A DNA stretch of 64,000 nucleotides from Candidatus Methanomethylophilaceae archaeon (GCA_944320495.1 CALUHR010000006.1:1-64000); one strand, 5' to 3'. Counted from the first letter of the stretch, positions 5,264-63,849 are shown. The notes: a model not told the origin generated them from the letters alone. Translations and numbers: made by a program.

Positions 5264-5785
5264 TCGTTCCTCGACGAAGCTGCACTGCTCCCTGACGAAG
5301 GAGATGGTCCTCCTGACGATGTCGCGGCACCTCCCGAGCGCGGTCTTGGGGTTCGTGTGGCGCATGCAGGCGGTCGCCACGGCGAGGTTGACGTGGTTGC
5401 CGACGCCGGCGATCGCCGCAGCCTCCCTGTCCTCGCCGCAGAAGGACATGTACCCCTCCACGACGCTGTTGAGGTAGTCCTGGGACTGCATGAACAGGTT
5501 GATCCACAGGTCCCTGTCGGCGACGATGCCACTGGGGTCGCCGTCGGCGGGGCCGGTGCGCCACGCACCCGCGTTGGGGCCGTAGTGATCGATCAGGAGC
5601 GAGACGCGTCCGAGGTTCTCGTCCGCCGTGCCCTCGGGGTCGTCGCTCTTCAGGGCGTAGAACGCGAGGCACATCGAGGCCATGACGGTCCAGTTGCCGA
5701 GGCCTATGCTCCCGGCCATCTCACCCGTCTCTTTGTCGGCGTACTTGAGGCGTTCGAGGAGTTCTACGTCCGTGGGGGATTCCAT
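5264..5785 (-). CDS. Hypothetical protein (ends at CGA 5264-5266; TGA 8 codons later)
   Basis: Host-like codon bias; no recognised family. Confidence 0.6.
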
Positions 5786-6014
5786 GTGAGCGGCGTATCT
5801 CGTGATGCTTATTAAACAATCAGAGAGCCCACATTATAGCAGGTTATTCATGAAAAAAGTGTAAAAATCGACATAAAATTCACAATAAGAATGCAAAACG
5901 ATGCACTTGTCCACGAATCGCAGTCATAGGTCGGAATCTCCCCGACAGCAACTCTAATGACGGGCCGAAGCGTCCCCGTCAATCGTTATATCGTAGCAGC
6001 GAGTGGGACCATCG

Positions 6015-6557
6015 ATGTGGGAACTCGGCGTCCTCGATTGGTTCGACTCCCTGCACGGGACCTTCCTGGACCAGCTGATGGTCGGTGTCACGTACAGCGC
6101 CACGTCCGGACTCGTCTGGTTCGTGCTGGGGTTCCTGATGACCTGCTCCCGCAGGTGGCGCAGATGCGGTGTGTCCGTGATCGTCTCTGTGGCTCTGGCG
6201 TACGTGGTGGTCGACGTCATCCTCAAGCCGCTGGTCTGCCGCGATCGCCCGTTCACTGTGGAGGACTTCGACCTGCTCGTGGCGCCTCCGGACACCTGGT
6301 CCTTCCCGTCGGGGCACACGGCCTCCGCGTTTGCGGGCGCGGTCGCGATACTGGTCCACGACCGCAGGTGGGGCTCCATCGCACTGGTGTACGCTGCCCT
6401 CGTGGGAATCTCGAGGATGTATTTCTGTGTCCACTGGCCGACCGACGTCATCGCCGGCGCTGTCATCGGAGCGGCGGTCGCCGTCCTGGCCATTTGGTTC
6501 ATGTCCCGCTGGGTCCCGTACTTCAGGGGGCTGGAACGTGAGGGTGCGATTCTGCGA
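6015..6557 (+). CDS. PAP2-family membrane phosphatase (CGA-terminated)
   Basis: K...RDRP, SFPSGHT, SRMYFCVHWPTDV motifs; first CGA at 6555-6557, immediately followed by AT-rich intergenic repeats. Confidence 0.9.
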
Positions 6558-6591
6558 TGTTACAGATGTTACAAACATAACAAAGATAACA
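6553..6591. repeat. 9-bp-period AT-rich tandem units (ACAGATGTT, ACAAACATA, ACAAAGATA)
   Basis: Directly visible; two units nearly or fully identical to those upstream of cas3. Confidence 0.6.
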
Positions 6592-6686
6592 TCTCAGAGT
6601 TTATCTATTCCTTCGGCCATCTTCATGCTGGAGGTCGGAGGGCGGCCGTAGAAGCGCCGTCCTCCCCTTCGAGAAGGAGGTACAGA

Positions 6687-6881
6687 ATGCCAGAGGAGGA
6701 GAAGAAGGCCGAGGAGACGGTGGATCCCATGGAGATTTTCCGGGACCATCTTCCCGAACCAGGTAGCGGAGCCAGCCTGTTCGACGACTGGAACGAGATG
6801 GCCCCCGATTTCCTGGACCAGTGCTCCGTCCCGGACAGGTCTGTGAAGAAGGGCGGCAGGGGATCGGCGGAGAAACGCTGA
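6687..6881 (+). CDS. Small acidic hypothetical protein (64 aa)
   Basis: AAGGAGG then ATG; MPEEEKKAEETVDPMEIFRDHL...; host codon bias. Confidence 0.55.
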   Translation: MPEEEKKAEETVDPMEIFRDHLPEPGSGASLFDDWNEMAPDFLDQCSVPDRSVKKGGRGSAEKR

Positions 6882-6941
6882 CGGAGCAGGCCCGTTCGCA
6901 CGGGCCCATGCTCTTAGTTAAGGGAATATTACTATGGATTT

Positions 6942-6977
6942 TCTTATTAAAGAAAACGGGCATTTTCTTTAATAAGA
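6942..6977. repeat. Perfect 15-bp inverted repeat TCTTATTAAAGAAAA-N6-TTTTCTTTAATAAGA
   Basis: Directly visible. Confidence 0.9.
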
Positions 6978-7118
6978 TTTCAACGGCGTTAATCACTGGC
7001 CAGAATGGACAGGAGTGGAGAAGATACAACCTGTTCGATTTCGAACGACACCGAACGTAGCCATGGGATATGATGGACCCGTGTCCAGAAGGTCTGATCT
7101 CAGGAATCTGGCTATGTC

Positions 7119-7162
7119 TTGATGGTGAGACTTGGCGGGGTTTTGATGGTGAGACTTGGCGG
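7119..7162. repeat. 20-bp direct repeat x2 (TTGATGGTGAGACTTGGCGG), 24-bp period
   Basis: Copies at 7119-7138 and 7143-7162. Confidence 0.9.
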
Positions 7163-7284
7163 CATCCCATCGAGGTCCGACGGATAGGATATCGATCGGG
7201 CCCATGAGACGACTTCTGTAAAGTGGTGTGGTAGGAAGAATGGAGGGGTAGGGGCAATGGCCCCCGTTGTAGTGGTTTGCGGGA

Positions 7285-8097
7285 TCACTCCATGACGTCG
7301 GCCATCGAGTAGACCTTGCCCTTGGCCTGCCTCACGACCCAGCCGGCGGCCATGACGGCGCCGCCGACGAAGATCTCCCTGGAGTGGGCCTGGTGGCGGA
7401 TCTCGATCCTCTCGGAGTTCCCGATGAACATGACGGTGTGGTCACCGACGATGTCCCCGCCCCTGACGGCGTGGATGCCGATCTCCTTCCCGCGGGGGCA
7501 GTGGCCCTGACGGCCGTAGACGAAGTCCTTCCCTCCCATGGCCTCACTGATGATCTCGGCCGCGGTCATCGCGGTTCCGCTGGGGGCGTCCTGCTTCTGG
7601 TGGTGGTGGGCCTGGCTGATCTCCACATCGTGGTCGTTCCCGAGGAGGAGCGCGGCCTGCCTGATCAGCTTGTTGAAGGCGGCCACTCCGATGGAGTAGT
7701 TGGTGGAGATGACGGCGGCGACGTTGTTCTTCACGACGGCGTCGGTGATGTCCTTCTTGACCTCGTCGGAGAGCCCGGTGGTCCCGATGATGAGGTTGAC
7801 CCCGGCCGCGGCGGCGATGGGCGCGTTGACGGCGGTGGCCTTGGCGATGGTGAAGTCCAGGAGGACGTCGGTCCTGGAGTCCTTCAGGACCTGAGCCAGG
7901 TCCTTGGAGTCCGAGACGGGGACGCCGAGGGCGCCTACGCCGACGACCTCTCCGATGTCCTTGCCGATGTTGACGAGGTCGAATGCCGCGGAGACGGTCA
8001 TGCCCTCGGTGGCGAGGACGCGCTTGACGAGCATCTGTCCCATCCTTCCGCAGGCTCCGACGAGTCCGACTCTGACTTCTGCGTTGTTGCCGGTCAT
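7285..8097 (-). CDS. dapB: 4-hydroxy-tetrahydrodipicolinate reductase
   Basis: GACGRMG, DFT, IGTTG, HHHQKQDAPSGTA, VRGGDIVGDHTV, HQAHSR. Confidence 0.97.
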   Translation of the reverse strand: MTGNNAEVRVGLVGACGRMGQMLVKRVLATEGMTVSAAFDLVNIGKDIGEVVGVGALGVPVSDSKDLAQVLKDSRTDVLLDFTIAKATAVNAPIAAAAGVNLIIGTTGLSDEVKKDITDAVVKNNVAAVISTNYSIGVAAFNKLIRQAALLLGNDHDVEISQAHHHQKQDAPSGTAMTAAEIISEAMGGKDFVYGRQGHCPRGKEIGIHAVRGGDIVGDHTVMFIGNSERIEIRHQAHSREIFVGGAVMAAGWVVRQAKGKVYSMADVME

Positions 8098-8142
8098 GTT
8101 GTATCGCCCACGCTAATGGGCGGACCGTATAATAACGTCGGC

Positions 8143-9033
8143 TCAGGCCGGCTCCGTCTCGATGGTCTCCTCGGCGTACCTGGAGGACACCCTGCTCAGG
8201 ACGTAGCCGAACACCAGGCCGGCGACGATGCAGACCGCGGTCGCTGGCACCATGTCGGTCTCCATGCCCTGTAGCGCCTGGACGACCACGGTCACGACGG
8301 ATCCGACGGTTATGCCCATGATGCACCAGTAGGCGGACCTCCTGCGGGTCCTGAAGAAGTAGTCCACGATCCTGGAGAGCCCCAGGACGCCGGCGATCAG
8401 GCCGAGGCCGATGGGGACGAGCGCGGCGATCCTCTCCATGAGCACGGACATGTCCATGCTGCCGACCAGGTCCATGAGCGGGGTGTACAGGCCGATTGCA
8501 AGGAGTATCGCCGCTCCGCTCAGTCCGGGGACGATCTTGGATAGCGCGATTAGCACCCCGACGATGAAGAGGAGGACGATGTCCACGATGTCGAGCTCCG
8601 CGAGGGAGATGTCGGAGTCGGTGGAGCCGAGGAACAGGAACGCGATCATCACGACGAACCCTATGACGCAGGCGGCGACGTTCCAACGCGTGATCCCATC
8701 CTCCTCCCCGCGCCCGTCGCAGAGCCTGTAGATGTCGGGTATCTGGAAGACGATGAGGGCCGCGAAGAAGAACATCAGCGGTATCTCCCAGTTCTGCAGC
8801 AGTGCGTCGATGCCGACGGCGCACACCAGCAGACCCACGACCACTCCGAGCCCGAGGGGCACGATGAAGCGGAGGTCCTTCAGGAGCTTCCCGCGGATGT
8901 TGGCGATGTCCGCGATCAGCCTCTCGTAGATGCCGAAGATGACGGCGATGATCCCGCCGCTGGCGCCGGGCATCATGGACATTATGCCCACGAGGGCGCC
9001 GACGAGGAAGTCCTTCACCGCTTTGACAGTCAT
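8143..9033 (-). CDS. DUF368-family membrane protein
   Basis: MPGASGGIIAVIFGIYE, IVPGLSGAAILLAIGLY; multiple TM segments. Confidence 0.85.
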   Translation of the reverse strand: MTVKAVKDFLVGALVGIMSMMPGASGGIIAVIFGIYERLIADIANIRGKLLKDLRFIVPLGLGVVVGLLVCAVGIDALLQNWEIPLMFFFAALIVFQIPDIYRLCDGRGEEDGITRWNVAACVIGFVVMIAFLFLGSTDSDISLAELDIVDIVLLFIVGVLIALSKIVPGLSGAAILLAIGLYTPLMDLVGSMDMSVLMERIAALVPIGLGLIAGVLGLSRIVDYFFRTRRRSAYWCIMGITVGSVVTVVVQALQGMETDMVPATAVCIVAGLVFGYVLSRVSSRYAEETIETEPA

Positions 9034-9091
9034 CGCCCGAGGGTTCGGTTCTTCCTATTTAGGGATTGTCCAGGAAGCGTCGCGAGGTCCG

Positions 9092-9892
9092 TCGGTACGG
9101 CGTCCTCCCGCCGAACTCCCTGTCGACTACTGCCTTGAGAGAGCGGAGGTTCTCCTCCGAGTTGGCGGCGAGCACAGGGCTCGGACCCTCGAAGGACACG
9201 TCCCCGTCGCCGATGCCGGTGTAGCACCCGCCCGCCTCCCTCAGGATGGTCAGCCCGGCGGCGTAGTCCCAGGGAGACAGCCTGATCTCGAAGTACATGT
9301 CCGCGGCGCCCTCGGCGATGAGCGACAGCTCCAGGGCGGCGGTACCGATGCGGCGGATGTCGTTGATCTCCGGGTAGAGGGACTCGCTCACCCTGAAGAC
9401 GGGTTCGGCCAACGACTTCTCGTAGCAGCACCAGGCCGTGCTGAGGATGCAGTCGCCCAGCGGGCGGTCCGAGACACGGATGGGCTCCCCGTCCTTGTAC
9501 GCCCCATCCCCGACCACGGCGCTGTAGAGCGTGTCCATGAACGGGTTCAGGACGAATCCGGCGTAGGGCTCGGCGTCGCGGAACAGCGCGACGGACACGG
9601 CGCACATGGGGATCCCGCGGGAGAAGTTGGCGGTGCCGTCGATGGGGTCGACGACCCACGCCCACTCGGAGTCCCGGAGGGAGGCCTCGTCACCCTCCTC
9701 GCCGATGAACGCGGATCCCGGGAGGAGCTCGGTGAGCCTCTGCTTGAGGAACCTCTCGTTCTCGATGTCCGCCGAGGTGACCAGGTTCTCCCTGGTGCCC
9801 TTGCTGCTCACGGTGAACCCGTGGGCGGAGCGGACCCTGCGCCCCGACTCCCTGACGATCGACTCGATGTCCTCGATGCTGGGTGCGTCCAT
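9092..9892 (-). CDS. Inositol monophosphatase family protein (CGA-terminated)
   Basis: LVTSAD..NE, FIGEE, WVVDPIDGTANF, RRIGTAALEL, LSPWDYAAG; ends ...GRTPY-CGA. Confidence 0.92.
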
Positions 9893-9930
9893 GGACCTGT
9901 GGATGCGGGCGCAGGATAAGGCCCTTGCCT

Positions 9931-10695
9931 TCGGAGGAACGTCTCGTTGGGGCGGCGGACCGAGGCGAGGGGTCCGAGCTTCGCCGTCATCGCATCCATG
10001 ACCGGTGCCGGGAGGCCCCTTGCCTTCTCGGGGCAGGCCTTGACGCAGGCCATGCACATGAAGCAGGCCCTCTCGTCGGTGACCACGCCATCGTTCCCGA
10101 TGGCTATCGCGCCCACGGGGCAGGCCTTGGCGCATCTTCCGCACAGGGTGCAACCGTCCGAGGTCGTGGGGTGGGACGAGGCCACGGGGTCCGGCCTGTA
10201 CGGACGGTTGCCCGGGACGGAGGGCACGGCGGAATCGCCTCTGCCGATCTTCGACAGTACCCTCCCGGCGAAGCCGACGATGTCGTCGGCGTCCCTGCCG
10301 TCGGGTCTCCCTTGCCCTACGCTGCGGACGATGGAGTGCTCGGCGATGAAGGCCCCGGAGGCGATGACGGTGAACCCGCGTTCTGCGAGTATGTCGTTCA
10401 ATTCCAGGAGGGCGTCGTCGAACGCCCTGGTGCCGTAGACCACGAGGCTTATCGCGACCCTCCCGTGCCCGTCGACGGAGCGTATGCGCTCGGCGGCCAC
10501 CGGTGGCAGCCTGCCCGCGAACACGGGCGCGGCGAAGACGGCGATCCCGTCCCCGGGGTCGGAGACGGGTTTGTTCGCGCAGAGGTCCACGAATTCGACC
10601 ACGTCGGCCATGGCGTCGGCGAAGGTCCTTCCGACCTCGGCGGTGCCGCCGGTCGGACTGAAGCAGAAGAGGTCCGTCTTGTCTATCATGCGCAT
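9931..10695 (-). CDS. Flavodoxin-fold + 2x[4Fe-4S] ferredoxin protein (EFR1-like, CGA-terminated)
   Basis: FSPTGGT, PVFAGR, VYGTRAFDDAL, CTLCGRCAKACP, CFMCMACVKACP; ends RRPNETFL-CGA. Confidence 0.9.
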
Positions 10696-11126
10696 AGCCA
10701 GATGTTCCGAGCGTATTATGGATGCGGTGCCGGTCCTCAAAGGATAGGATGGCATCTCGACTCATGCATCCGGGTGACGCGATCGGATCGGACATCCGCT
10801 CTGCCAACCCCCATCCATGGAACCGATGGCCTCGGCGTCTTCGCGACAGGGTCCTCATCGGGTCGAGGTTCCGACCATGCCTCACAGCATGGTAATGTCG
10901 ATCCCAAGACACCTTCTCGAGACCGAGACCCAGAGACAGGATCTCCTTTCGGGAACCGCAGGTATCGTCCGTGCGTCCATCTGTCGGCCGGACTCGGGTG
11001 CCCGGCCGGCGCAACAACACGTTCTCTCAAGGATGTGATGCGAACCAACTACGTCAGTGCTGACACATCCCCGTCCGTCATCGTGGGATGGTGTCCTTTA
11101 AGTCGGAGTTCCCGAATCATCATCCC

Positions 11127-12515: not shown

Positions 12516-12567
12516 GTTCGTCAATCGACGGTAGCGATATTCGACACGGTTAAATAAGCAACCTCTC

Positions 12568-23106: not shown

Positions 23107-23451
23107 ATGACGTCCGTCATCTTCGTCCGCATGAACACCTGCCAGAGATACGCTAGGGTGGCCGTCTCCAGGCGTGACGACGGGGACATGGACGTGAGGA
23201 TCGAATCGGACTGCGATAACATCGTCGAATATGCCAGGCGTCTCCCGGCGATATCGGACATGGACGTTCTGGATCCCGGCAGCGGACGCATCTTCGACTC
23301 CGAGGTCCGCGGACCGCTGACCCCCACGTGCCTCTGCCCCATGGGAGTGATCTATGCAGCATCGATGGAGATGGGCCTGATGACAAAGCGCATCTCGGAG
23401 GCCGTGTCCTCGGACCAGATCGACCTCACGCACTGCACGGAGGAGGATCGA
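23107..23451 (+). CDS. Hypothetical methanogen-type protein (ends at CGA; TGA 8 codons later)
   Basis: C...IESDC...TCLCP.G Cys pattern; host codon bias. Confidence 0.6.
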
Positions 23452-27829: not shown

Positions 27830-28327
27830 ATGGGAGCAGGGCCGGTGCGCGTGCAGGATGCCGTGAAGACGGCGTGCTCGCTCTCCTACGTGGCAGAGAA
27901 GCTCGGCATCTCCCGGCCCACGCTCTACCGTTACATGGACCTCTACGACGAGGGCGACGGTATGAGGATACCCTCAGGCGTCAGGGACCTGTTCGACTTC
28001 GTCACTTCTGCGAGGAGGAGCGAGGAGGACGTTATCATGTACTTCATGAGGCGCCCCCAGCCCGGCAAGGCCCCGGAGCCCCGGGTTCGCATAGCGACCG
28101 GCGGAGGTCGCGTCATGGTCATGTTCCCTGATGCGGATCCAGACGACGTCGTTGTGCGTATATTCACGGACTTCGACGGGGTGCGCGAGGAGATCGGGGA
28201 GTACGTCCCGGAGTCGGGGAGGAAGTATGTCACGGTGGACGACCTGATCCCGGGCACCGAGTTCTACCTCGAGGTTGTGTCCGGCGGTGTCAGCACGGGA
28301 CAGATAAGGTTCGACGTTCAGGGGCGA
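27830..28327 (+). CDS. HTH-domain hypothetical protein (ends at CGA; TGA 12 codons later)
   Basis: LSYVAEKLGISRPTLYRYM HTH; beta-rich C-terminus. Confidence 0.65.
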
Positions 28328-31314: not shown

Positions 31315-31761
31315 TCGGACCAGGTCGTGCAGGCGTGCGTGGTCCCTTTTCATGGCATCGAACTCAGCATTCGGACAATTCCTTTCCAGGACCTGCAGGG
31401 CTCTCGCAACATCCCTCGGAGAGATGGCGATCATGTCCCCGCGGCCGTGGCCGTACCAGACCTGGACGCATCTCGTATGCGGACTGCTCACTTCAACGAC
31501 TCTCCGGATGTCGACATAGAGGACGCGACTCCTTCCCTACTGGATCGGATCACGCACAGTGATGCCGGTCCCATCGAACGCATAGCATGTCAAGGAAGGA
31601 ATCATGACGAGGTAGAGCTCGATGAAGAACAGGATCCCGATCATCAGCCGACACCTCTCCGGCATTGCCAGTATCATCAGGAGCACGATGACGAGCGAGA
31701 GCACCATGCACAGATGGATTGCGGGACCTGCCCTACCTCTCAATCTGATGATGTCGGACAT
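31315..31761 (-). CDS. Membrane protein, 2 TM + bacterial PH-like domain, with internal TAG (31537-31539) and CGA end
   Basis: Two track ORFs are in one frame separated only by TAG; joined product has TM-TM-T.Y.F....I.VR...V.Y.DI..V...I.ISP.D....L pattern. Confidence 0.6.
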
Positions 31762-31804: not shown

Positions 31805-34096
31805 TCGGAAATCGAAGAGGCTGGCCTGTCTCGGGCCCGCCTCGCCCTTGCCTTCTTCCTTCTTCTCTTCGACGACGGTCTCGGAGGGTGCGTCTGCATC
31901 GCCGGGCTCCCCGTATGCGGCGGCCATCTCGTCGATCAGCGCCTCCTCCTCGGATGGGGACGTGTATCCGACCGGCTCCGCCGACTTTCCCGCCTGCCTG
32001 AGCATGGCCTCCGCCATCCCTCTGCCGATCCCGGGGACCGTCGACAGCACCGACACGTCGGAGGCGGCGACCTCCGCCTTGGTCCTGATCCCCCTGTCGA
32101 AGAGGGCCCTGGCCCTGGCCCTGCCGATGCCACGGAGGGACACGAGGTCCATCAGCTCCTCCTTTACGCCGTAGCGTATCCTGGTGGAGAGCGGTCTGAT
32201 CCTTCTGATCGCGGGCGGGTTGAAGATGTAGGCGATCTCGCCCATGGCGTAGATCATCCAGTCCATCATGTCGATGCGGCTGCGGATGTCGCCGGGTCCG
32301 ATGCCGAACCCCGAGGTCATGGTGCCCTCCGGCACCTCCGAGATCCAGTCCTCGGTGACCAAGGCGACCTTCAGGTCGCTGCCGAAGAGCTCGTACATGT
32401 AGTCGTCGCGCTCCGCCGGGTCCACCAGCAGATCATCCTCGTGCTCCGCCTCGAACGCGGACACGCGCTCCTCGTCGCACTTCTTGGGGTACATGCCGAG
32501 CACGTCGGGAGTCATGGCGGCCGCCACGAGTATCAGCAGCTCGTCCGTGTCCTCATCCATCTTCATCACGGCGTCCCTGAGGATGGAGGCGGACTCGGGG
32601 TCGATGCACAGGTCGGAGACCCTCCTCCCGAACGGGAGGACCTCAATCGTCCCTCCCTGGCGGCGGACCATCTGCTCCCTCTCCAGGAAGTCGACGACGC
32701 TCTCCACCGCGCTCTCCACTCCGAACATCTGGGACGTGGCCCCGTAGAACGTGCGGCGCAGGAACTCCACGATGGATTCCTCGGAGTCGGCGTCGCCGGT
32801 CGCGAGAACCCCAAGGATGTGCGTCCTGATGACGTTCCCGTTGAACAGCTGGGACTGCACCCTCTCCGTGTCGTGCTCGATGTAGTCCTCCCTCAGATGG
32901 CCGGCGTCGCGGACGTTCTTCGCCATGAGGACGGCCTCGCCGTAGGGGTCGTATCCCGGCCTCCCGGCGCGTCCGCACATCTGCTTGACCTCCATCACCG
33001 GGATGGGCACGCTGCCTCCGTTCTCGAAGCGGGTGGTGTCCCTCACGATGACCCTGCGGGCCGGGAGGTTGATCCCGGCGGCGAGCGTCGGCGTCGCGAC
33101 GATGCACTTGATCAGCCCCGACTTGAAACCGTCCTCCACGGTGCGGCGCTGCCTGTAGGTAAGCCCCGCGTTGTGGAACGCAGCCCCTCCTGCAACGCAC
33201 TGAGCCAGCTTCCTGCCGACATCGGTGGCCTCCGCATCCCCCTCGAGGGCGGACCTCTCCGCCGCCGACAGGGCCCTGCCGTGGCCATGTGCCAGCTTCT
33301 CGGCGAGACGTGATGCTGCGGCCTCTGTGGACCTGCGGGAGCTGACGAAGACCAGGCACTGCCCGCCCGAGTCCAGGGTCTGCATGACGAGAGCCTCCAG
33401 ATCGTCCTTCGGATTGGGGACGTCCAGGGATGACCCGTCGTCGAAAGTGATCCTCCCGTCCAGGTAGACGCCCTCCCTAAGGGGGACCGGCCTCCATGAG
33501 CTCCTGACCAGGTCCGCGTCCAGCCAGTTGGCCAGGTCGATGGCGTTGGAGATGGTCGCCGACAGGGCGATGATCTGGAGATCCGGGTTCCTGCCCATCA
33601 TCTTGGTCAGCGTGACCTCGAGCGTGGGCCCCCTCCCCGGGTCGTGGATCATGTGGACCTCATCCGCGATGACGAGTCTCACGTCCCTCATCCAGGGGCT
33701 CCCGTGCCTGATCATGGAGTCGGCCTTCTCGGAGGTGGCGACCACCACATCGGCATCGGACAGCCCGCGGTCGTCACTGTCCAGATCCCCGGTGCTCATG
33801 TGAATCCTGAATCCCAGCCTCTCGGAGAAGACGTCGAAGTCGTCCCTCTTCTCGGCGGCGAGAGCCTTCAGCGGAACGATGTAGAGGACCTTCCCGCCGC
33901 GCTGTGCCAGCAGCTTGAGGGCGGGGACCATGCCGATGAGCGACTTCCCGCTCGCCGTCGGTATGGCGGCGACTAGGTTCCTCCCCTCAAGGGCTTTGGG
34001 TATAGCCTCGGCCTGCGGGGGATGGAGCTCCCTGAACCCTGCGGACATGAGCGCGTCCGCGACCGAGTCCGGGATGTCCAGCTCATCGACCCTCAT
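31805..34096 (-). CDS. hel308: Ski2-like SF2 helicase Hel308/Hjm (CGA-terminated)
   Basis: PTASGKS, ADEVH, GRGPTLE, ALSATI, FHNAGL, TPTLAAGINLPARRV, QMCGRAGRPG; ends QASLFDF-CGA. Confidence 0.95.
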
Positions 34097-39933: not shown

Positions 39934-40535
39934 ATGGACCTCGAGATCGCTGCCTCCGCGCTGGAGAGCAGGGGTTACTCAGTGTCGATCCATTCGGACA
40001 GGCTTCCGCAAGGGACCACATAGTCTCTGGATGCCGGGGATGCGTGATCGGGTTCGGCGACTCCCGCACTCTGGAGGCAATGGCCCTCGGCGATGCGCTC
40101 TCAGGCTCCTGCACCGTCATCGACCCGGCCCGGACCACGGACAACGACTCATTCCTAGAGGTGGCCCGCTGGGCGATGTCCGCGGACGTGTTCGTGACAT
40201 CTGTCAACGCCATGTCCGAGGACGGCGTCATCGTGAACATCGACGGCACCGGCAACAGGGTCGCCGGCTCGCTATTCGGTCATCGCAGGATGATCTACGT
40301 CATCTCCCGCAACAAGATCGTCCCGGACTTGGATTCCGCCATCGAACGCGCCCGGAACGTCGCCGCACCCATGAACGCCAGGAGATACGGTCTCAGGACG
40401 CCATGCGTGAGGGACGGCAGGTGTCATGACTGCCGTTCTCCTGACCGTATATGCAACGCGCTCCTCGTCCAGCTCCGTAGCATGAACGACATGGATGAGG
40501 AGGTCGTGCTGATCGACGAGGACCTGGGTTTCCGA
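39934..40535 (+). CDS. LUD-domain (lactate utilisation LutC/YkgG-like) protein; 1-nt frameshift near 40001; CGA end
   Basis: MDLEIAASALESRGYSVS in one frame, GFGDSRTL...NIDGTGNRV...C.DC.SPDRICN...DEDLGF-CGA in the next. Confidence 0.8.
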
Positions 40536-40542
40536 GGTCCTC

Positions 40543-41016
40543 TCGCATCGATCCTATGCGGGAGTGCAGACCCTCCTCACCCCAGACGATCCTGTCCAGA
40601 TCCCCGTCGTTCCTGTCAACGGTTGTGATGATGAAGGACAGCAGGGCGCGGAGGAAGTCTTCGGACGGCACGTTCCCCTGGTAGGGGCAGACGTACTCGA
40701 ATGTTACCATCCCCTTGTCAGGATGGAGGACGAAGCATCCCAGTTCGACCTCGCCGTTCAGTGCATTGATCGCCCGCAGGACCTCTGTCTGCCTCTCCTC
40801 CGGGACGGTGATGCCCAGCACCGAGGAGATCGTGAGCCATCCGTTCTCCGCCGTGGCCAGCAGACCAATCTCCATGTCATCTCCCGGGATGATGCAGTCG
40901 AGGCTCAGCCCGCTCTCATCCCTGTTGCGCTCGTCGGAGACATCCCCGATGATCCTCCAGATGGTCTCGAGCACCATCTTGTCAATCTTTCCCTGAAAGT
41001 CGAACAGCCCTGCCAT
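40543..41016 (-). CDS. YbjN-like (type III secretion chaperone fold) protein, CGA-terminated
   Basis: V...L..IN..N.....G.F.L....G.V.F pattern; first CGA at 40543-40545. Confidence 0.7.
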
Positions 41017-41077
41017 CGGAATCGCCTACATGTGTCGTATGCATCGTCCCTTTATAGATGGGAGCCAATCGGCAATC

Positions 41078-41620
41078 ATGACCCGGAACAGCTACTCCGG
41101 GAACTCCCTCGTCATCGGGAGGTTCCAACCGCTCCACAACGGACATATGGAGGTCCTCATGAAGTGCGCGTCCGAGTCCGAGAGGCTCATCGTGGGCATC
41201 GGCAGCGCGCAGTACTCCCACCACCCGTCCAATCCATTCACGGCCGGGGAGCGCTACCTCATGATCGACGAGTCCCTCAGGGAGGCTGGGATAGACAACT
41301 ACAGCATCGTCCCCATCGAGGACCTGAACAGATACTCGGTGTGGGTCGCCCACGTGGAGTCGATGTGCCCTCCGTTCGGCAGGGTCTACACCAACAACCC
41401 GATGACCCGCAGGCTATTCGAGGAGGCGGGGTACGAGGTCAGCAATTCCCCCATGTACGACAGGTGTCGCTATTCGGGCACCGAGATCCGGAGGAGGATC
41501 CTCGAGGGCGAGGAGTGGAGGCATCTCGTGCCAGAGGCCACGGCACGCGTCATAGACCAGATAGACGGCGTGGGGCGCATCGCGGCCATCTTCAAGGGTG
41601 ATTCCGGTGCTCCCCTCCGA
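41078..41620 (+). CDS. nadM: Nicotinamide-nucleotide adenylyltransferase (CGA-terminated)
   Basis: GRFQPLHNGH, IGSAQ, NPFTAGER, WVAHV, SGTEIR; 180 aa to first CGA. Confidence 0.93.
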
Positions 41621-42089
41621 GGTCACCGAGCTTCTGGACATCCTGGGTTCCCGGGGGCTGACCCTCGCATGCGCCGAATCCTGCACCGGCGGGATGATCG
41701 GAGCCGCGATAACCGAGATGCCGGGCGTGTCATCGATTTTCATGGGCAGCGCCGTCACCTACAGCAACGACGCCAAGGAGTCCATTCTAGGGGTGTCCCA
41801 CCGGACGCTGCTGGATCACGGCGCGGTGAGCGCCGAGACCGCCGGGGAGATGGTCCGCGGTGCGATGCGCGCCTACGGATCGGACACCGCGATCGCGGTC
41901 ACCGGCATAGCCGGCCCAGGAGGGGCCACGGCGGAGAAGCCGGTCGGGCTTGTGTACATCGCCGTCGCAGACGGGCCGAGGGTTGTCGTCTCCAGGAACG
42001 TCTTCGACGGGGACCGCGCCCATGTCCGCGCATCCACCGTGAGGGAGGCGTGCAGGCTCCTCCGCGAGCTGATCGAGGGCAGGCTGCGA
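41598..42089 (+). CDS. cinA: CinA C-terminal-domain protein (NMN deamidase PncC-like), CGA-terminated
   Basis: AESCTGG, VTYSNDAK, GAVS.E.A..M, TGIAGP.G, KPVGLVY; 163 aa to first CGA. Confidence 0.92.
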
Positions 42090-42123
42090 CGGATTCTTAT
42101 CGGCGTCCGGCATCCCGCCGGAT

Positions 42124-42792
42124 ATGAGGTACGAGAGGCAGATCCCAGTCGTAACGGAGGACGGCCAGCGCAGGATACAGTCCGCCCGCGTGGGCATCGC
42201 CGGATGCGGCGGTCTCGGCGTGAACGTCATAACCAATCTGGTCACCGCGGGGGTCACCCAGTTCGTACTCTGCGACCACGATGTGCCGGACATCACGAAC
42301 CTGAACCGCCAGTACATCTACTATCCGGGCGACATGAGGCCGAAGGCGGAGGTCGCCGCCCAGTGGGTCCTCGCCCTCAACCCCATAGCGGAGGTGGAGG
42401 CGCACGCGCAGCCGTTCTCCAAGGACACAGCATCGATGTTCCTGGGCTGCGACATCATCGTGGACTGCCTCGACTCCTTCTCGGCGAGGATGGAGCTCAG
42501 CGACTTCGCAGCCGAGAACGACATCCCCTTGGTGCACGGGGGGATCGAGGGTCTGAACGGACAGATGTTCGTCATGGTCCCGGGGGAGACGGCCACGCTC
42601 CGCGACGTCTACGGCGACAGGAGGGACCCGGAGGGTCCGCTTCCAGCCCTCGGGGCCGCAGTCGCCTGCATCGCCGCCATGCAGTCCGTCGAGGCCGTCA
42701 AGCTGCTCGCCGGGATGCCGTCGGAGGCCCGCGGGAAGCTGATAACCGTGGACATGGGCGGATGGTCCGTAGAGTCCGCGAGGATATCCTGA
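42124..42792 (+). CDS. ThiF/MoeB/HesA-family E1-like adenylyltransferase
   Basis: RYERQ, GCGGLG, D.D.....NLNRQ, DCLDS..AR. Confidence 0.9.
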   Translation: MRYERQIPVVTEDGQRRIQSARVGIAGCGGLGVNVITNLVTAGVTQFVLCDHDVPDITNLNRQYIYYPGDMRPKAEVAAQWVLALNPIAEVEAHAQPFSKDTASMFLGCDIIVDCLDSFSARMELSDFAAENDIPLVHGGIEGLNGQMFVMVPGETATLRDVYGDRRDPEGPLPALGAAVACIAAMQSVEAVKLLAGMPSEARGKLITVDMGGWSVESARIS

Positions 42793-42841
42793 AGGCCAGC
42801 CCCTCGAATCATGTTTATAGGCGCTAAGGTTAGCACCGCTC

Positions 42842-46185: not shown

Positions 46186-46728
46186 ATGCCAGCAGCCCTG
46201 ATACTGTGCGGAAGCGCGCGCGAGGACGGAGTCACCGAGAGGATGTGCCGCACCGCATCGGAGACCCTGGAGTCGATGGGATACGACACCGTCTCCATCC
46301 GCATCACCGACGATGTCTCCCATTGCAGGGACTGCGGACTCTGCAGGGGCGGCCGTTGCGTCCTGGACGACGCGATGTCGGGGATATACGAGGAGTTCGC
46401 GAAGGCGGACCTCCTGGTGCTGGCGACACCGGTGCACTTCAGCGGCCCGTCGTCGCTGATCAAGTCCGCCGTGGACAGGTTCCAGCCGTACTGGTACAAC
46501 AGGGGCCTGTCCCATCCGTCCGTCGCCCTGGGACTCGTCTGTGCGGGAAGCGACTCCCCCAGGTTCGGACCCACCGAGAGCATCTTCAGGGCGTTCTGCG
46601 CAACCGTCGGGATGAGATGGCTGGGTCAGTTGGAGTTCCCCGATACCGACAGGAACGGAGGGGAGGGCGCGGCGGAGGCCGTGGAGGGATTCATCAGAAG
46701 CGCGGTCGGAGCCTCAGCGGAGCAATGA
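46186..46728 (+). CDS. Iron-sulfur flavoprotein / NADPH-dependent FMN reductase family
   Basis: GSAR..G.T, C.DC..C....C...D, ATPVHF. Confidence 0.88.
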   Translation: MPAALILCGSAREDGVTERMCRTASETLESMGYDTVSIRITDDVSHCRDCGLCRGGRCVLDDAMSGIYEEFAKADLLVLATPVHFSGPSSLIKSAVDRFQPYWYNRGLSHPSVALGLVCAGSDSPRFGPTESIFRAFCATVGMRWLGQLEFPDTDRNGGEGAAEAVEGFIRSAVGASAEQ

Positions 46729-57004: not shown

Positions 57005-57031
57005 ACGAGTGGATCTATTGATTGTCAAAAT

Positions 57032-57079
57032 ACAAAGATAACAAACATTACAAGTAATACAATTATTACAAGAATAACA
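57032..57079. repeat. Five 9-bp tandem units upstream of cas3
   Basis: ACAAAGATA ACAAACATT ACAAGTAAT ACAATTATT ACAAGAATA ACA. Confidence 0.7.
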
Positions 57080-57120
57080 GCGAGCATCATATATTTGGAT
57101 ATCCGCTGCGATTCCCTATC

Positions 57121-59883
57121 ATGGAATCCTCTGGAGAACGGGCCTCCAATCTGTCGGTGAGGGCGAGATCCCTTTGGGCGAAGGTCTCGAATCAGAGAGG
57201 TAGCTCCGATTGGCTATCGCTTCCAACCCACATGAGCGACTCATGTATGGTATGCAGGGAGATCTGGAATGATTGGGTCAGTCCGGCTGTGAAAAGCATC
57301 ATTGTTCGTGGGATTAGCATGTCCGACGGTTCCGATGCTTCTTTGGAAACGGCAGAGGGATTGGCATTGTTTCTTGCCGCCGCTCACGATCTTGGCAAAG
57401 CGTCCCCCGCGTTCCAATGTAGGATCATACCATCCAATCTTGATATTCAGGAGGAATGTCGTCAGAGGCTGGCAGGTTCAGGTCTTGAATTGAATCTAAA
57501 TCTAAGCCAGTCTCATTCCCCGAAGCACGCTATCATCTCGGAGATGATCCTTGAGAGGAATGGAATCGACCGTACCATTGGTGTGGTTCTAGGAGGGCAT
57601 CATGGTAAGCCGCCGGGTTTTGCGGATCTCGAGAATCTCAGCGCTTACAGCGGACACACGGGATCGAAATCGAAGTCATGGGTAGAGGTGCAGGACGAGC
57701 TCCTGGTTTTCGCATGCCAGCTGTCATCATTCGATCTCGGGATGGTGCGCCAAATAAGACTGGATCTCCAATCGCAGGCTGTACTGACAGGTCTCGTGAT
57801 AATGTCCGATTGGATGGCCAGCGATGAGACTCTCTTCCCCTATTCGGAGGATGGGATCGGACAGTCGACATCCGAGCGCATCGGGGAGGCATGGGCCAGC
57901 ATAGGTATCAGGAGATGGGATGCGGAAGACGAATGGTCGTCATATGACCTCTACGAGGGAAGGTTCGGATTCACGGCCAGGCCATTCCAGAGAGCAGTGG
58001 CGGATGTCGCAGCCAATGTCTTCGGACCATGTATGATTGTGATCGAGGCACCGATGGGTGAAGGTAAGACAGAAGCTGCCCTGGTGGCCGCAGAGACGCT
58101 GGCGAGCAGATTCGGGGATGGGGGAGTGGTATTTGCGCTGCCTACACAAGCCACCGCTGACGGGATATTCAAGAGATTCCTGGATTGGGCAGAGAAGGCG
58201 TCCCCTGGTTTCGATCGTCATTCGATATTCCTCGCTCATGGGAAATCCAGATTCAACAATCAGTTCAACAGGCTCAGATCTTCAAATATGAGGGTCGGGG
58301 GCGAAGATGGCAACTTGGTGTCAGGCAACATCGTAGCCATGGATTGGTTCAGCGGTCGCAAGAAGGGGCTGTTGTCCGATTTCGTCGTAGGGACTGTTGA
58401 TCAGGTTCTAATGGCTGGTCTTAAGCAGAGGCATCTGGCCTTGAGGCATCTGGCCTTGTCAGGCAAGGTCGTGGTGATTGACGAATGTCATGCTTATGAT
58501 GCTTACATGGGCAGTTATCTCTCACTCGTGCTGCGTTGGCTGGGGTCTTACAGAGTGCCCGTCATACTGATGTCTGCCACTCTTCCCTCGGGGACCCGTA
58601 GGATGCTCATGGAGTCCTACTCCAACAGTAGCGTCGATCAAACCGAAGAGGATTCCATGGCGTATCCGAGGATTTCCGTAGTGGATGGAAACGAGACATC
58701 CTATGTATTTCCCGGTTCTTCATCAAGAAGGTATGATGTCAGAATCGAGCGCGTCACGGATTCGGAGATGATGGACAAGCTGCATGCATTTCTGCAGAAC
58801 GGGGGATGTGCCGGTGTTATAGTCAATACCGTTGCCCGTGCACAGGGATTCTACGAGAAACTGAAGTCAGAATACCCAGATGATCGTGTAATTCTCATCC
58901 ATTCTGCGTTCACCGGAACCGATCGTTCGGTCATAGAGTCGGATGTCATGGATGCTCTGCATGAGGCCCACAACACTCAGCAGACGAGGACGATCGTTGT
59001 CGGGACACAAGTGTTGGAGCAATCCCTGGACATTGACTTCGATTTGCTGGTCAGCGACATTTGTCCCATGGATCTGCTGATCCAGCGTATCGGACGTCTG
59101 CACAGGCATGACAACCCGCGTTCCTCCAAGATGGCCGAAGCGACATGTCTGGTCCTCGACACAGATAGTGAGGAATTCGAGAAGGGTTCGGAGGCCGTCT
59201 ACGGCAGATTCCATCTGATGAATGCCCGTCTGCTCCTTCCGGAATCCCTGAACATACCGGACGATATCCCGAGGTTGGTCGAATCCGCTTACGATCCATC
59301 CGGGATCCCATGGGGGACGGAAGTCTTCGAGGATTATCTCGATGCCAAAAGGGATGATAGTGACCTGATATCAATCGAGAGGAGGAAGGCAAGGGCTTTC
59401 CAGATCTGTCGTCCGGACAGGTCTCCGGAAGGCGATGGCAGTCTGGTGGGATGGCTAGAGATGGCCCTGTCGGACAAAACCGAAAGAATGGCGGAATGCA
59501 CAGTCAGGGATGCAGATCCGTCGGTGGAGGTCATCCTGGTATGTCGCGATCATGCGGGGAATTTCAGAACTTTGCCCTGGGTGGGGGAGACCGGAGGTTC
59601 GATCATACCTCCGGATTCCTGTCCGGATGTCGGATTGGCATACGAGATGGCAGGGTGCAAGATACGCCTGCCGGGCAGATTGACCCGCAGGTACAACATA
59701 GATGAGACTGTGAATAAACTAGAGTACATTATATAGCAAAACATCATACCTCAGGTGTGGCAGGAGTCCCATTGGCTCGCAGGGGAACTCTTCCTCCTGT
59801 TGGATGAGGACCTGACGGTGACGTTCGAGGGGCTCAGGATGAGGTACGACAGGGAGTATGGAATGAGGGTTTGCGATGATCGA
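57121..59883 (+). CDS. cas3: Cas3 HD nuclease-helicase (type I-E), internal TAG at 59734-59736, CGA end
   Basis: HDLGKA, GGHHG, SDWMAS, APMGEGKTEAA, DECHAYD, MSATL, TQVLEQSLDIDFD, QRIGRLHRH; Cas3-like tail WQES.WL.GEL.LLLD...YD.EYG lies after the TAG. Confidence 0.92.
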
Positions 59884-61426
59884 GAAAGAATTCAACCTGA
59901 TCCGCGAGAAGTGGATACCGGTGATGAAAGAGGATGGGACGATCGAGGAGGTGGGTCTGGAGGATGTGCTGGTCCATGCCCACGAGTATCTCCGCATATC
60001 GAGTGAACTTCCTACCTTGGACTATGCTCTGATGAGGCTTCTGATGGCAACGGCCTATGCCGCCAACCGCGGATGGCTGGATGGGATCGATGATGTGGGG
60101 TCCGCCACATCATCATGGAAGCAGGTCATGGATGCCGGCAGATTCGACGAGTCCGCCATCAGAGGATATCTGGATAGGTACGAGGACAGGTTCTACCTGT
60201 TCCATCCGACGCGTCCATTCTACCAGGCCCCGATCGACAAAGGGACGGAGTACTCCGCAGCCAAGCTGATAGGGACGCTTTCCGAGAGTTCCAACAAACC
60301 GAGGTTCTTCCAGATGGTGAGCGGTGTTGCCAAGGAGAGCATAAGCTATCCGGAGGCGGCCAGATGGCTACTCCATGTAATCGCCTATGATGATACCTCG
60401 GCCAAGCCGACCGTTCCAAAATCCGGGCTCCCATCGCCAGGTGCGGGATGGGTTGGCAAGATCGGGCCAGTGTATTTCGCAGGGGACAACCTCTTCCAGA
60501 CGCTGCTCCTGAACATGCCGTTCTACAATATGATCCTGAACGAGCCGTTCACTGATGGCGTGGCAACGTGGGAACCAGAGGTCGCGAACGTCACAGAACG
60601 CAGGGAGATCCCCCTGCCGGGAAGCCCCATCGAACTTCTGACCATCCAGTCCAGAAGGATACTCCTGAAGAGGAACGGGGAGAGAGTCACAGGATTCCTT
60701 CTGCTCGGCGGGGACTTCTTCCAGAAGGAGAACGCGTTCATCGAACAGATGACGGCTTGGCATCGCACCAAGGAGGGAGGATGGGTGCCGTCGAGGCACG
60801 ATCCTGCCCGGTTCATCTGGCGTGATTTCAATCCGCTCCTCTTGGAGCGTGATGAGGACAACAACCCTGGCGTGGTGAAGTGGGTGTCCCGTCTGGCGAG
60901 CCGTGGAATCATAGCGAAGGGCAATGTCAGGCTGACCACCACTGCCGTGACCTATGGCGACAAGGATTTCGTAGCAACGGGTGTGGTAAACGATGCCCTG
61001 TCGCTGAATTCCCAGATTCTCTCCGATCTCGGCAGGAACTGGAGGGTCCGCATCTCGGATTCCCTCGACTCCACTGATCAATGTGTCATGGCATTCGGGA
61101 GATTCGTACAGAACCTGGCCGTGGCCGAAGGGGAGGATGAGAAGTCATTGGACCTGCCGAAGTTGCGTTCCGTGGCCATGGAGCAGGCTTACTTCAGACT
61201 CGACAAACCGTTCAGGGTCTGGCTCTCAGCCATCGATCCCGATTCGGATTCAGAAGACGACAGGATCGCCGAGTGGGAGCGTCAGATGCGCTCCCTGCTC
61301 TTCTCCATGGCCGATGACATGGTGAACGGATGCAGTATCAAGGCGATCACTGGTCGCGATATGGAGAGGAACGCATTCAGCAGACTTCAGTTCTTCAAAA
61401 ACACGGTCAACAAGATCCTGAGGTGA
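59876..61426 (+). CDS. cas8e: Cas8e (CasA/Cse1)
   Basis: FNLI.E.WIPV, RFYLFHP..PFYQ, EAARWL, G.NLFQTL.LN, EQMT.W. Confidence 0.92.
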   Translation: MIEKEFNLIREKWIPVMKEDGTIEEVGLEDVLVHAHEYLRISSELPTLDYALMRLLMATAYAANRGWLDGIDDVGSATSSWKQVMDAGRFDESAIRGYLDRYEDRFYLFHPTRPFYQAPIDKGTEYSAAKLIGTLSESSNKPRFFQMVSGVAKESISYPEAARWLLHVIAYDDTSAKPTVPKSGLPSPGAGWVGKIGPVYFAGDNLFQTLLLNMPFYNMILNEPFTDGVATWEPEVANVTERREIPLPGSPIELLTIQSRRILLKRNGERVTGFLLLGGDFFQKENAFIEQMTAWHRTKEGGWVPSRHDPARFIWRDFNPLLLERDEDNNPGVVKWVSRLASRGIIAKGNVRLTTTAVTYGDKDFVATGVVNDALSLNSQILSDLGRNWRVRISDSLDSTDQCVMAFGRFVQNLAVAEGEDEKSLDLPKLRSVAMEQAYFRLDKPFRVWLSAIDPDSDSEDDRIAEWERQMRSLLFSMADDMVNGCSIKAITGRDMERNAFSRLQFFKNTVNKILR

Positions 61427-61431
61427 ATGAT

Positions 61432-62031
61432 ATGTATGATACTGCAGACGCAGTCCACAGATTCGTGAAGGGGAGGATAGCCGTCCTGCAGACGGACGAT
61501 CCTCAGAACAAGGCGAGGCTCGCCGTCCTCAGGCGCGGTCTCGGAAAGGACCCTGCGGATTCCGCGGAGGTCTGGTCGATAACCATGGAAGGCATCCCAG
61601 ATGAGCTTACCGCTAAGGGCAGCGGCATCATCCAGGCCACCGATGCGGAATGGGCCATCCATACTGCCCTCACACTCTACGCGCTGCACAGGCAGGGCTC
61701 GAATGCCCAGATGAGTACATCCGAACGCTCTTTCGCATCGGCCATCCGTCTTCTCACGGACCCGTCCGATGAGTCAGGCGGACCCGTGAAGAAGCGCTTC
61801 GATGCGCTGGTGACCTCGGAGAGCATCACGGAGGTCGCCAATCATGCGCGCAGGATCGTGCAGCTTCTCAAGGCGTCGGACAGGCCCATAGCATTCGACT
61901 ATCCAGCCCTTGCACGCGATATCTATCTCTATGGGATGCCGGGCGGCAGGCGCGCCGTACGTCTCAGATGGGGCCAGGACTATTTCAGGGCAGAGAAAGC
62001 AGACAGGAATGAGGAGAACAAGGAGGAATGA
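61432..62031 (+). CDS. cse2: Cse2 (CasB/Cas11)
   Basis: LA.LRRGLG, E.A....L.LYALH.QG, RF.AL, DY..LA.D, WG.DY. Confidence 0.92.
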   Translation: MYDTADAVHRFVKGRIAVLQTDDPQNKARLAVLRRGLGKDPADSAEVWSITMEGIPDELTAKGSGIIQATDAEWAIHTALTLYALHRQGSNAQMSTSERSFASAIRLLTDPSDESGGPVKKRFDALVTSESITEVANHARRIVQLLKASDRPIAFDYPALARDIYLYGMPGGRRAVRLRWGQDYFRAEKADRNEENKEE

Positions 62032-63134
62032 AAATGGGAAACAACAAGAGAATGTACATAGACATACATGTGATTCAGACGATTCCGCCCAGCTGCGTGA
62101 ACCGCGATGACACAGGCAGCCCGAAGACGTGCACATATGGGGGCACCAACCGTTCGAGGGTGTCGTCCCAGAGCTGGAAGAGGGCTGTCAGGGAGTATTT
62201 CAAAGGAACAGTTGATGAAGGGGAGCTCGGAACCAGGACGAAGAAGATTGTCGAGCTCGTGTACGAGGAGATAGTCAGGCAGGACCCTTCTATCCCCGAG
62301 GCAAATGCACAGAAGATGGCCGTGGACGTCCTGACTGCAGCCGGCATCCAGATTGCGAAGAAGAAGGGCAAGGATGACGATGGGGATGATGTCCCGGAGG
62401 CCAAGGCTCTGTTCTTCATGAGCAGGAAGCAGGCGGAGAACGTAGCCGCTCTCGCGATTGCAGGGGGTTACGACAAGAAGAAGGCCCAGGCCGCCCTAAA
62501 CGCCGGTACCGGCATCGACATAGCCCTCTTCGGTCGCATGGTGGCCGATGATCCTAGCATGAACGCTGATGCCTCGGCGCAGGTGGCACACGCCATCTCC
62601 ACCCATCGTGTCACGAACGAGTTCGACTACTACACGGCGGTGGACGAGAGATCCCCTGCCGACAATCCCGGTGCAGGGATGATCGGTACCATCGAGTTCA
62701 ATTCGTCGACGATGTACCGCTATGCCACGGTGGCCGTCCATGATCTCGAGAGGCAGCTGTCAGATGACCCATCGGTAACTGCCATCGCCGTGAGGGAGTT
62801 CGTCAGGGCGTTCATACTGTCCATGCCCACCGGAAAGATGAACACGTTCGCCAACAGGACGATCCCCGAGTACGTGCTAATCGAGCTCCGCGATGATCAG
62901 CCGGTCAACTGCGCCGCGGCCTTCGAGACCCCGGTTCAGCCTGGAAGGGACAAGGGCGGATACTCGGAGAACTCCGTCAAGGCTCTAGAATCATATGTCT
63001 ATTCGATACGTAGCTTCGTTCCGCCGGCAATCAGGGAATGGCGTATCAGCGGAGGCGTGGACACGGATGCAGAGACCGTCAGTCTCCAGGCGGCCCTTGA
63101 TCAGATCGTGTCAGCGATCTCCGAGGAGCAGTGA
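62028..63134 (+). CDS. cas7: Cas7 (CasC)
   Basis: IH.IQT.PPSCVNRDDTGSPKT, RVSSQSWKRA.R, DIALFGRM.A, QVAHAISTH, DY.TAVD. Confidence 0.96.
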   Translation: MKMGNNKRMYIDIHVIQTIPPSCVNRDDTGSPKTCTYGGTNRSRVSSQSWKRAVREYFKGTVDEGELGTRTKKIVELVYEEIVRQDPSIPEANAQKMAVDVLTAAGIQIAKKKGKDDDGDDVPEAKALFFMSRKQAENVAALAIAGGYDKKKAQAALNAGTGIDIALFGRMVADDPSMNADASAQVAHAISTHRVTNEFDYYTAVDERSPADNPGAGMIGTIEFNSSTMYRYATVAVHDLERQLSDDPSVTAIAVREFVRAFILSMPTGKMNTFANRTIPEYVLIELRDDQPVNCAAAFETPVQPGRDKGGYSENSVKALESYVYSIRSFVPPAIREWRISGGVDTDAETVSLQAALDQIVSAISEEQ

Positions 63135-63135
63135 G

Positions 63136-63849
63136 ATGCCTACCGTGCTGCTGAGGCTGGCCGCGCCCATGCAGTCATGGGGTGTGGACAGTGTATACAA
63201 CACGAGATCCTCGGGCGTGATGCCATCTAAGAGTGCCGTGATAGGGCTTGTGGCCTCCGCCATGGGGCGCTCGAGGCGTGATGTGCTGGACGATCTCAGC
63301 GACCTCAGGTTCGGTGTCAGGGCGGATCAGCCCGGAAGGATGATGAGGGATTACCAAACGGTCGGGAATCCGAAGAAGGACGAGGTCATGTTCACCATCG
63401 ACCGTTACTATCTGTCGGACGCCATATTCCTGGCAGGTCTGGAAGGGGATGCGGGCATCGTAGGGGACATAGACGCAGCTCTAAAGAGCCCCATGTTCCC
63501 GCCGTTCCTCGGCAGGCGCTCATGTCCTCCCACCCAGCCTCTGTCGTTGGGCGTCCGTGATTTCGGATTGACAGAGGCGCTGTCACAGGAGGGGTGGCAG
63601 GCATCCGCATGGTACAGACGCAAGTCCCTGCCGAAGGTCAGCCTGGAGGCGGTCATGGATTCCGATGCCGAAGGGGCGGATTCCATGGTGCGCGATGTGC
63701 CGGAATCGTTCGATCCCAGGCGTCGCGAGTACGGATACCGCCAGGTGCGTCATGTTCTCGATTTCGTATCGTTCGATAATCCGGACAGTCGCAGAAAACC
63801 GATCGTCACGGATCACGACCCCATTTCAGTGATCAGGGGGTCCAGCCGA
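63136..63849 (+). CDS. cas5: Cas5 (CasD), CGA-terminated
   Basis: L.L.APMQSWG, PSKSAVIGL, R.YL.DA.F, LGRRSCPP; first CGA overlaps the cas6e ATG by 1 nt. Confidence 0.94.

Follow-up and report, generated by a model that had tools for sequence, protein, structure and literature searches.

The window analysed here, a stretch of 64,000 nucleotides (nt), is contig C6:1-64000 of the archaeal metagenome-assembled genome (MAG) G000, which totals 1.77 Mb (62% GC, 14 contigs, 90.6% complete) and in which no 16S rRNA was found. Its host group is a Methanoprimaticola-type genus of gut Methanomethylophilaceae, and "genus" in all counts given below refers to this genus. Codon use is strongly biased in the genome, arginine being mostly encoded by AGG and CGC. 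An initial annotation of the window had proposed that the arginine codon CGA acts as a stop codon in 15 of its genes, and these sites are listed in Table 1. All 15 codons were found in frame at these positions, each of them being the first CGA downstream of the start of its coding sequence. For the frames ending at 6555, 9092, 23449, 40533 and 63847, earlier CGAs do occur when the frames are taken from stop to stop, but they sit upstream of the real start: for cas5, for example, the preceding in-frame CGA (63115) lies before the ATG (63136). When the four terminators TGA, TAA, TAG and CGA were allowed and only confident open reading frames (ORFs) were retained, the census of the window gave 45 ORFs, of which 34 end at TGA and 11 at CGA, with none at TAA or TAG. 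This agrees with the annotation, according to which the other intact genes end in TGA.

The family-typical C-termini expected from a stop at CGA were recovered as well. Pfam domains finish shortly 5' of the CGA for the PAP2, IMPase, Fer4, DUF6951, Hel308, LUD, NadM, CinA and Cas5 genes and, with a weak match, for the YbjN-like gene, while the tails beyond the CGA have no Pfam match at all. As for the sites at 5264, 28325, 31315 and 46706, the support comes from frame and coding statistics, and not from family or ortholog comparison. The clearest case is the NadM-CinA-ThiF cluster, where three genes follow each other in three different frames (41030-41617, 41598-42086 and 42124-42792). Under the standard code, NadM would extend 168 codons into CinA and CinA 245 codons over all of ThiF, the CinA ORF (41598-42827) spanning the whole thiF gene, which accounts for the overlap of about 700 nt that had been pointed out. 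In the public gene calls on the assemblies carrying this cluster, NadM is extended to 365 aa, the YbjN-like protein to 207 aa and CinA is left uncalled; these annotation errors are due to the application of the standard code.

Table 1. In-frame CGA codons, and one in-frame TAG, in the window (for minus-strand genes, CGA is written TCG on the + strand).
Feature	Position	Strand	Observations
CGA end of hypothetical gene (about 5785 to 5267)	5264..5266	-	Sole CGA in the ORF; confident in census; standard TGA 7 codons on; no Pfam match
CGA end of PAP2 phosphatase gene (6003-6554)	6555..6557	+	PAP2 profile matched over 3-127/130, up to aa 169; CGA is codon 185; standard ORF adds 107 unmatched residues
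CGA end of inositol monophosphatase (IMPase) gene (about 9940 to 9095)	9092..9094	-	Pfam Inositol_P; genus orthologs stop at the same codon
CGA end of 4Fe-4S (Fer4) protein gene (10755 to 9934)	9931..9933	-	Fer4 ends at aa 245; CGA is codon 277; 40-codon tail overlaps IMPase start
CGA end of DUF6951 gene (23107-23448)	23449..23451	+	Profile 5-96/101; two orthologs end at most 1 codon away
CGA end of HTH protein gene (27830-28324)	28325..28327	+	Sole CGA in frame, 11 codons 5' of TGA; confident in census
CGA in small ORF (31491 to 31318)	31315..31317	-	In frame; no Pfam match; under census threshold; weakest case
CGA end of Hel308 helicase gene (34096 to 31808)	31805..31807	-	770 codons without CGA; genus orthologs stop at the same codon
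CGA end of LUD-domain gene (40044-40532)	40533..40535	+	LUD_dom 39-177/189 ends at aa 146; 30-codon tail would overlap convergent gene
CGA end of YbjN-like gene (41016 to 40546)	40543..40545	-	Weak YbjN match, 29-116/126, E=1.1e-3, 19.6 bits, below the 22-bit cut-off; 49-codon tail with 3 more CGA
CGA end of NadM-type nucleotidyltransferase gene (41030-41617)	41618..41620	+	CTP_transf_like 2-133/133; 168-codon tail with 8 more CGA; same DNA in four assemblies
CGA end of CinA gene (41598-42086)	42087..42089	+	CinA 7-154/155, CGA 6 codons on; same DNA in four assemblies
CGA end of hypothetical gene (47404 to 46709)	46706..46708	-	Sole CGA in 261-codon frame; TGA 3 codons on; confident in census; no Pfam match
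In-frame TAG within cas3	59734..59736	+	Cas3_C 1-65 before, 69-107 after
CGA end of cas3 (57121-59880)	59881..59883	+	Cas3_C ends 5 codons 5'; cse1 ATG at 59876 overlaps; Cse1 profile begins at that ATG
CGA end of cas5e (63136-63846)	63847..63849	+	Cas_Cas5d 1-217/217; next ORF (MYLSL...) has its ATG at 63849, overlapping as CGATG

At the genome level, CGA is scarce inside genes and concentrated at their ends, as the proposal implied. Over 572 long ORFs taken from stop to stop, the in-frame frequency of CGA is 0.24 per 1000 codons in mid-ORF vs. 6.5 per 1000 in the last 30 codons, i.e. a 22-fold enrichment, the runner-up codon reaching 3.9-fold. The GC content at the three codon positions is.61/.42/.90 before the first CGA and.72/.54/.67 after it, thus passing from a coding to a non-coding pattern, whereas no such switch was observed for nine rare control codons. 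In a six-frame likelihood analysis, the coding signal stops after 91.6% of the CGA sites vs. 90.4% of the TGA sites. As a whole, 1509 confident ORFs were found, with TGA as the most frequent end (1090), followed by CGA (352, or 23%), TAA (50) and finally TAG (17); with a stricter score threshold, the CGA share of ORF ends is 19%. The next standard stop lies at a median distance of 26 codons after CGA (at least 100 codons in 93 cases) and 29 codons after TGA, and so the sequence following CGA looks like the sequence following a stop. Concerning the base located 3' of the 352 terminal CGAs, it is a T in 56% of the cases vs. 29% after TGA: 22% of the terminal CGAs form CGATG with the start of the next gene, and 27% are found as CGATC.

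The ends of these genes were also compared with those of orthologs, using about 1.4 Mb of sequence from additional genus members, 18 more genera of the same family and one outgroup family (G030), and CGA falls where the stops of the relatives fall. In 127 comparisons involving 69 CGA-ended genes, the standard stop of the relatives was at most 5 codons away from the CGA in 93% of the cases, with a median difference of 0; for TGA-ended genes, used as control, the corresponding value was 94%. In Hel308, all 28 genus orthologs end in LFDF, directly followed by TGA (20), TAA (1) or CGA (7); TGA is also what G018, the nearest relative, has. Similarly, the IMPase of 19 genus orthologs ends in TPY and then directly in TGA (8) or CGA (11). 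The EGRL end of CinA is followed by TGA in 15 genomes, and G018, G008 and G014 have CGA at this very codon. As for NadM, CGA occupies the same position in nine other genomes of the genus. Related MAGs therefore carry CGA ends at orthologous codons, and in the other genus members CGA is found at about 11% of gene ends. Internal copies are few in these genomes, with 14 CGA in 78,687 aligned codons, of which 4 are opposite an arginine; the abundance of CGA at conserved arginine columns that would have contradicted a stop function was not observed. Longer C-termini shared by orthologs were not observed either: the tails past the CGAs vary from 2 to 499 codons between species, which indicates that they are not conserved proteins.

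The exact DNA surrounding the NadM and CinA CGAs is present in four independent assemblies, namely three ENA metagenome assemblies and one Logan assembly. The T-to-C base-call errors that had been put forward as an alternative can be excluded, since the same CGAs are carried by these four assemblies and orthologous CGAs by many species. A methylation-motif or base-call artefact was also considered and rejected, the sites having no common context beyond the CGA itself, and stop-loss extensions were ruled out by the lack of conservation of the tails between species.

Only three in-frame CGAs were found in the whole genome for which coding continues without any new start, two of them being conserved. 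The first one is in the gene of aRF1, where the sole in-frame CGA is codon 78 (G000:C2:86932-86934). It is present in every full-length aRF1 of the genus that was examined, each genus member having just this one in-frame CGA in the gene, and in 36 of the 38 species with an aRF1 of 80% identity or more; its context, [G/T]CT CGA CTN, is kept while adjacent synonymous sites vary. At the family level, at least one CGA was found in all of the 80 aRF1 genes fetched, mostly at codon 25, 11, 78, 123 or 50, despite an overall CGA frequency of merely 0.1-1.3 per 1000 codons in most genera sampled. The aRF1 gene thus has the hallmark of prfB-type genes, i.e. a conserved early in-frame codon, in the factor's own gene, at which the factor would terminate. 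The second site joins gmhA in frame to a gmhB lacking its own start codon (G000:C13:194143-194145). In 29 other genomes of the genus, this junction consists of CGA in 22 cases, TAG in 4 and a sense codon in 3, and gmhA-CGA-gmhB is therefore regarded as a candidate for a programmed read-through fusion. The base following the CGA is C in aRF1 and G in gmhA/gmhB. The third site is in a flavodoxin-like gene (G000:C8:55685-55687), with a CGA inside the domain (GKTI-CGA-PFCT); the codon found at this place in the nearest orthologs is AGG. Either this is a rare reading of CGA as arginine or the gene is a recently inactivated paralog; its alignment with an arginine codon suggests that CGA, when read, is probably read as arginine.

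The loss of tRNA-Arg(UCG), which had been suggested along with the stop function, was not borne out. The tRNA gene is present in the genome (G000:C13:413317-413390) and in at least 13 other members of the genus, with compensatory changes in its stems across the genus. Its anticodon arm, on the other hand, is atypical: the subclade of G000 has a 31-39 mismatch (A.A in G000, C.A or U.C in sister species), and the subclade of G008 and G015 has the loop CCUCGAC with C33 and A37, whereas three other genera have a canonical form of this tRNA. As the cognate tRNA is retained, the codon is better described as a leaky stop than as a clean one.

Regarding aRF1, it had been suggested that this factor may accept CGA, and its decoding motifs were inspected. 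The factor is encoded by a single-copy gene, the sole other match to the eRF1 fold being presumably Pelota, and it possesses a canonical NIKS motif together with YRCDSTF, i.e. YxCxxxF with R at the x position. Both motifs are intact, and the sole genus-specific change, A17D, is remote from them, so that no molecular explanation of CGA recognition emerged from this comparison. Of the earlier proposal, the terminator role of CGA is strongly supported by both genome-wide statistics and orthologs, and the mechanistic guesses attached to it are mostly unsupported.

Among the genera sampled, CGA is a regular terminator solely in the genus of the window. It is an ordinary arginine codon in the outgroup family f7 (G030; 1.8 per 1000) and in genus g20 (3.0 per 1000), scarce yet still a sense codon in genera g10, g11, g12, g18 and g23, and almost absent from genera g13, g15, g16, g17 and g24. 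In G097, 2 out of 42 ends were candidate CGA ends, both ambiguous, and one of them could equally be a gene fusion.

Within the window, the region 57121-64000 is a type I-E CRISPR-Cas operon (cas3, cse1, cas5e and other ORFs) of lower GC content (0.56-0.58). The ORF that follows cas5e may be cas6e, given the resemblance of its N-terminus to that of CasE. Both cas3 and cas5 end at CGA, and seemingly foreign genes apparently follow the local code. The cas3 frame reaches its CGA only if translation continues past the TAG at 59734. Since PylS is encoded elsewhere in the genome (PylS_Cterm, 260.8 bits, above the cut-off), insertion of pyrrolysine or read-through is probable at this codon. The genome thus combines the two features of pyrrolysine-using archaea, PylS and an in-frame TAG within a conserved domain, and TAG ends just 17 of the 1509 ORFs.

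Taken together, these data lead us to consider CGA as a leaky fourth stop codon that is interchangeable with TGA, likely released by the single aRF1 and in competition with the retained tRNA-Arg(UCG), a reading to which we give a probability of about 0.8. By reference to work on yeast eRF1, aRF1 itself would release the peptide at CGA, and the atypical tRNA-Arg(UCG), probably weakened, would compete with this release and make the codon leaky. Codon 78 of the aRF1 gene could then act as a feedback sensor similar to that of RF2 (prfB): abundant aRF1 would lead to premature release, while with scarce aRF1 an arginine would be inserted and the full-length factor produced. It is this fit to an RF2-like sensor that argues for aRF1 as the releasing agent. 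At the gmhA-gmhB junction, read-through of the CGA or TAG would produce the start-less GmhB as a fusion. We also consider, with a confidence only slightly above even, a more elaborate version, in which CGA would be a deliberately leaky, aRF1-read stop through which aRF1 gauges its own level, tRNA-Arg(UCG) would be kept solely for programmed read-through, and the system would have a stepwise origin. CGA would first have been depleted across the Methanomethylophilaceae, the aRF1 genes keeping at least one copy, before the Methanoprimaticola-type genus took it up as a regular terminator.

Several observations weigh against a release of this kind. Termination at the CGA itself is deduced from DNA sequence, and the retention of a cognate tRNA is unusual for a stop codon. 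No genus-specific change occurs in the NIKS, YxCxxxF or GTS regions of aRF1, and Y53Q and S56A, located beside NIKS, are common to sister genera which use CGA little or not at all as a terminator. How one factor would accept CGA while rejecting CGG, CAA and CAG is unexplained. Tandem standard stops are found after 6.0% of the CGAs vs. 3.3% of the TGAs, with no clear excess of back-up stops, and the 23% share of CGA among ORF ends is possibly somewhat inflated by spurious ORFs.

Part of this evidence could be accommodated by an effectively unassigned, "hungry" CGA, at which a weak or scarce tRNA would stall the ribosome before a rescue pathway, either non-cognate aRF1 or Pelota/ABCE1 with peptidyl-tRNA hydrolase, frees the peptide. 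The atypical anticodon arm of tRNA-Arg(UCG), an aRF1 devoid of genus-specific changes in its decoding motifs and a CGA frequency that falls gradually over the family (3.0 down to 0.1 per 1000 codons), as codon disappearance would predict, all speak for it. Yet an unassigned codon is expected to be near-absent from genes and to have no decoding tRNA, while CGA forms 352 ORF ends and its tRNA is present; stall-and-rescue ends would be costly for 23% of the genes, CGA swaps freely with TGA at identical codons, and the conserved CGA in aRF1 makes most sense if aRF1 senses this codon. We thus regard rescue as improbable. C-to-U editing of the mRNA, which would turn terminal CGA into UGA, is very unlikely: the two codons are indeed one C/U apart, but the editing would have to be frame-aware, with 5,814 (frame 2) and 24,243 (frame 3) off-frame CGAs present in the confident genes, the sequences flanking the sites have no context in common, and both the conserved CGA of aRF1 and the alternation of CGA and TAG between gmhA and gmhB would be left unexplained. 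Finally, base-call or assembly errors, stop-loss extensions, or codon bias combined with chance, to which the MAG nature of the genome, its incompleteness and the rank of CGA as just the second-rarest codon (TTA being rarer) might lend some weight, are the least credible of all, given that the same sites are found in four independent assemblies, that orthologous CGAs are kept across species, that the tails are unconserved as coding sequence and lose coding periodicity, and that rare control codons behave otherwise.

No description of such a use of CGA was found in the literature library searched, and Kivenson et al., who dealt with TAG as pyrrolysine, make no mention of CGA. The data point to a leaky fourth stop codon, of which no cellular genome has so far provided an established case. 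If the aRF1-read stop is correct, it would be the first sense-to-stop code change in a cellular, non-organelle genome, and it would indicate that a release factor of the eukaryotic type can come to accept a codon starting with C. The reassignment would moreover be seen in mid-course, with CGA usage falling over sister genera, the tRNA still there and a plausible homeostatic circuit in the aRF1 gene, making the codon capture and ambiguous intermediate theories directly testable in gut methanogens. In this respect, the RefSeq record "Candidatus Methanoprimaticola sp. MG2" suggests that an enrichment or a culture may exist. From a practical point of view, public annotations of these genomes are wrong, roughly 10-25% of the proteins per genome bearing false C-terminal tails.

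Sense codons used as stops are known from organelles, namely AGA/AGG in vertebrate mitochondria (table 2), TCA in Scenedesmus (table 22) and TTA in Thraustochytrium mitochondria (table 23). As here, a sense codon of the standard code ends genes, and the vertebrate case also involves arginine codons. However, these are tiny genomes with about a dozen genes and reduced tRNA sets, whereas a cellular genome of the free-living type is concerned here, in which some 350 genes are affected, there is a single aRF1 and the cognate tRNA has been kept. As for autoregulation, bacterial prfB (RF2) is controlled by an in-frame UGA, from which the ribosome escapes by +1 frameshifting. The aRF1 gene resembles it in having an early codon, conserved across species, at which its own factor would terminate, and the negative-feedback logic may be the same; it differs in the escape, since tRNA-Arg(UCG) would simply read through the codon, which lies at a conserved arginine position.

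Concerning the recognition of CGA, yeast eRF1/eRF3 misdecode this codon as a stop in competition with tRNA-Arg (Wada and Ito 2018, PMC7379694). This release is enhanced by L123R/F/Y, i.e. by R, F or Y at the x position of YxCxxxF, these being UGA-biased variants (PMC7379694). The aRF1s of the genus read YRCDS and thus have R at x, but in yeast this amounts to error or rescue at a low level, seen on reporters, and native genes do not normally end in this way. In two archaeal assemblies from hydrothermal vents, CGA is absent from recognisable domains and a possible stop meaning was raised by Melnykov (2026, bioRxiv 10.64898/2026.04.02.715157). Absence from domains and a suspected stop function are shared with the present case, but the vent archaea belong to another lineage of about 50% GC in which CGG is read as Trp, tRNA-UCG was not found and the stop meaning stayed a suggestion; here the tRNA is present, CGG stays arginine and the use as a stop is apparent from the ortholog ends. 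Codon disappearance, or ambiguity between tRNA and release factor, is also found with the unassigned CGG of Mycoplasma capricolum, the codes of Condylostoma and Blastocrithidia, and the pyrrolysine "Code 34" (bioRxiv 10.1101/2024.09.30.615893). In all of these, a stop became a sense codon or a codon lost its meaning, while in the Methanoprimaticola-type genus a sense codon would have become a stop, its sense being kept at two or three sites.

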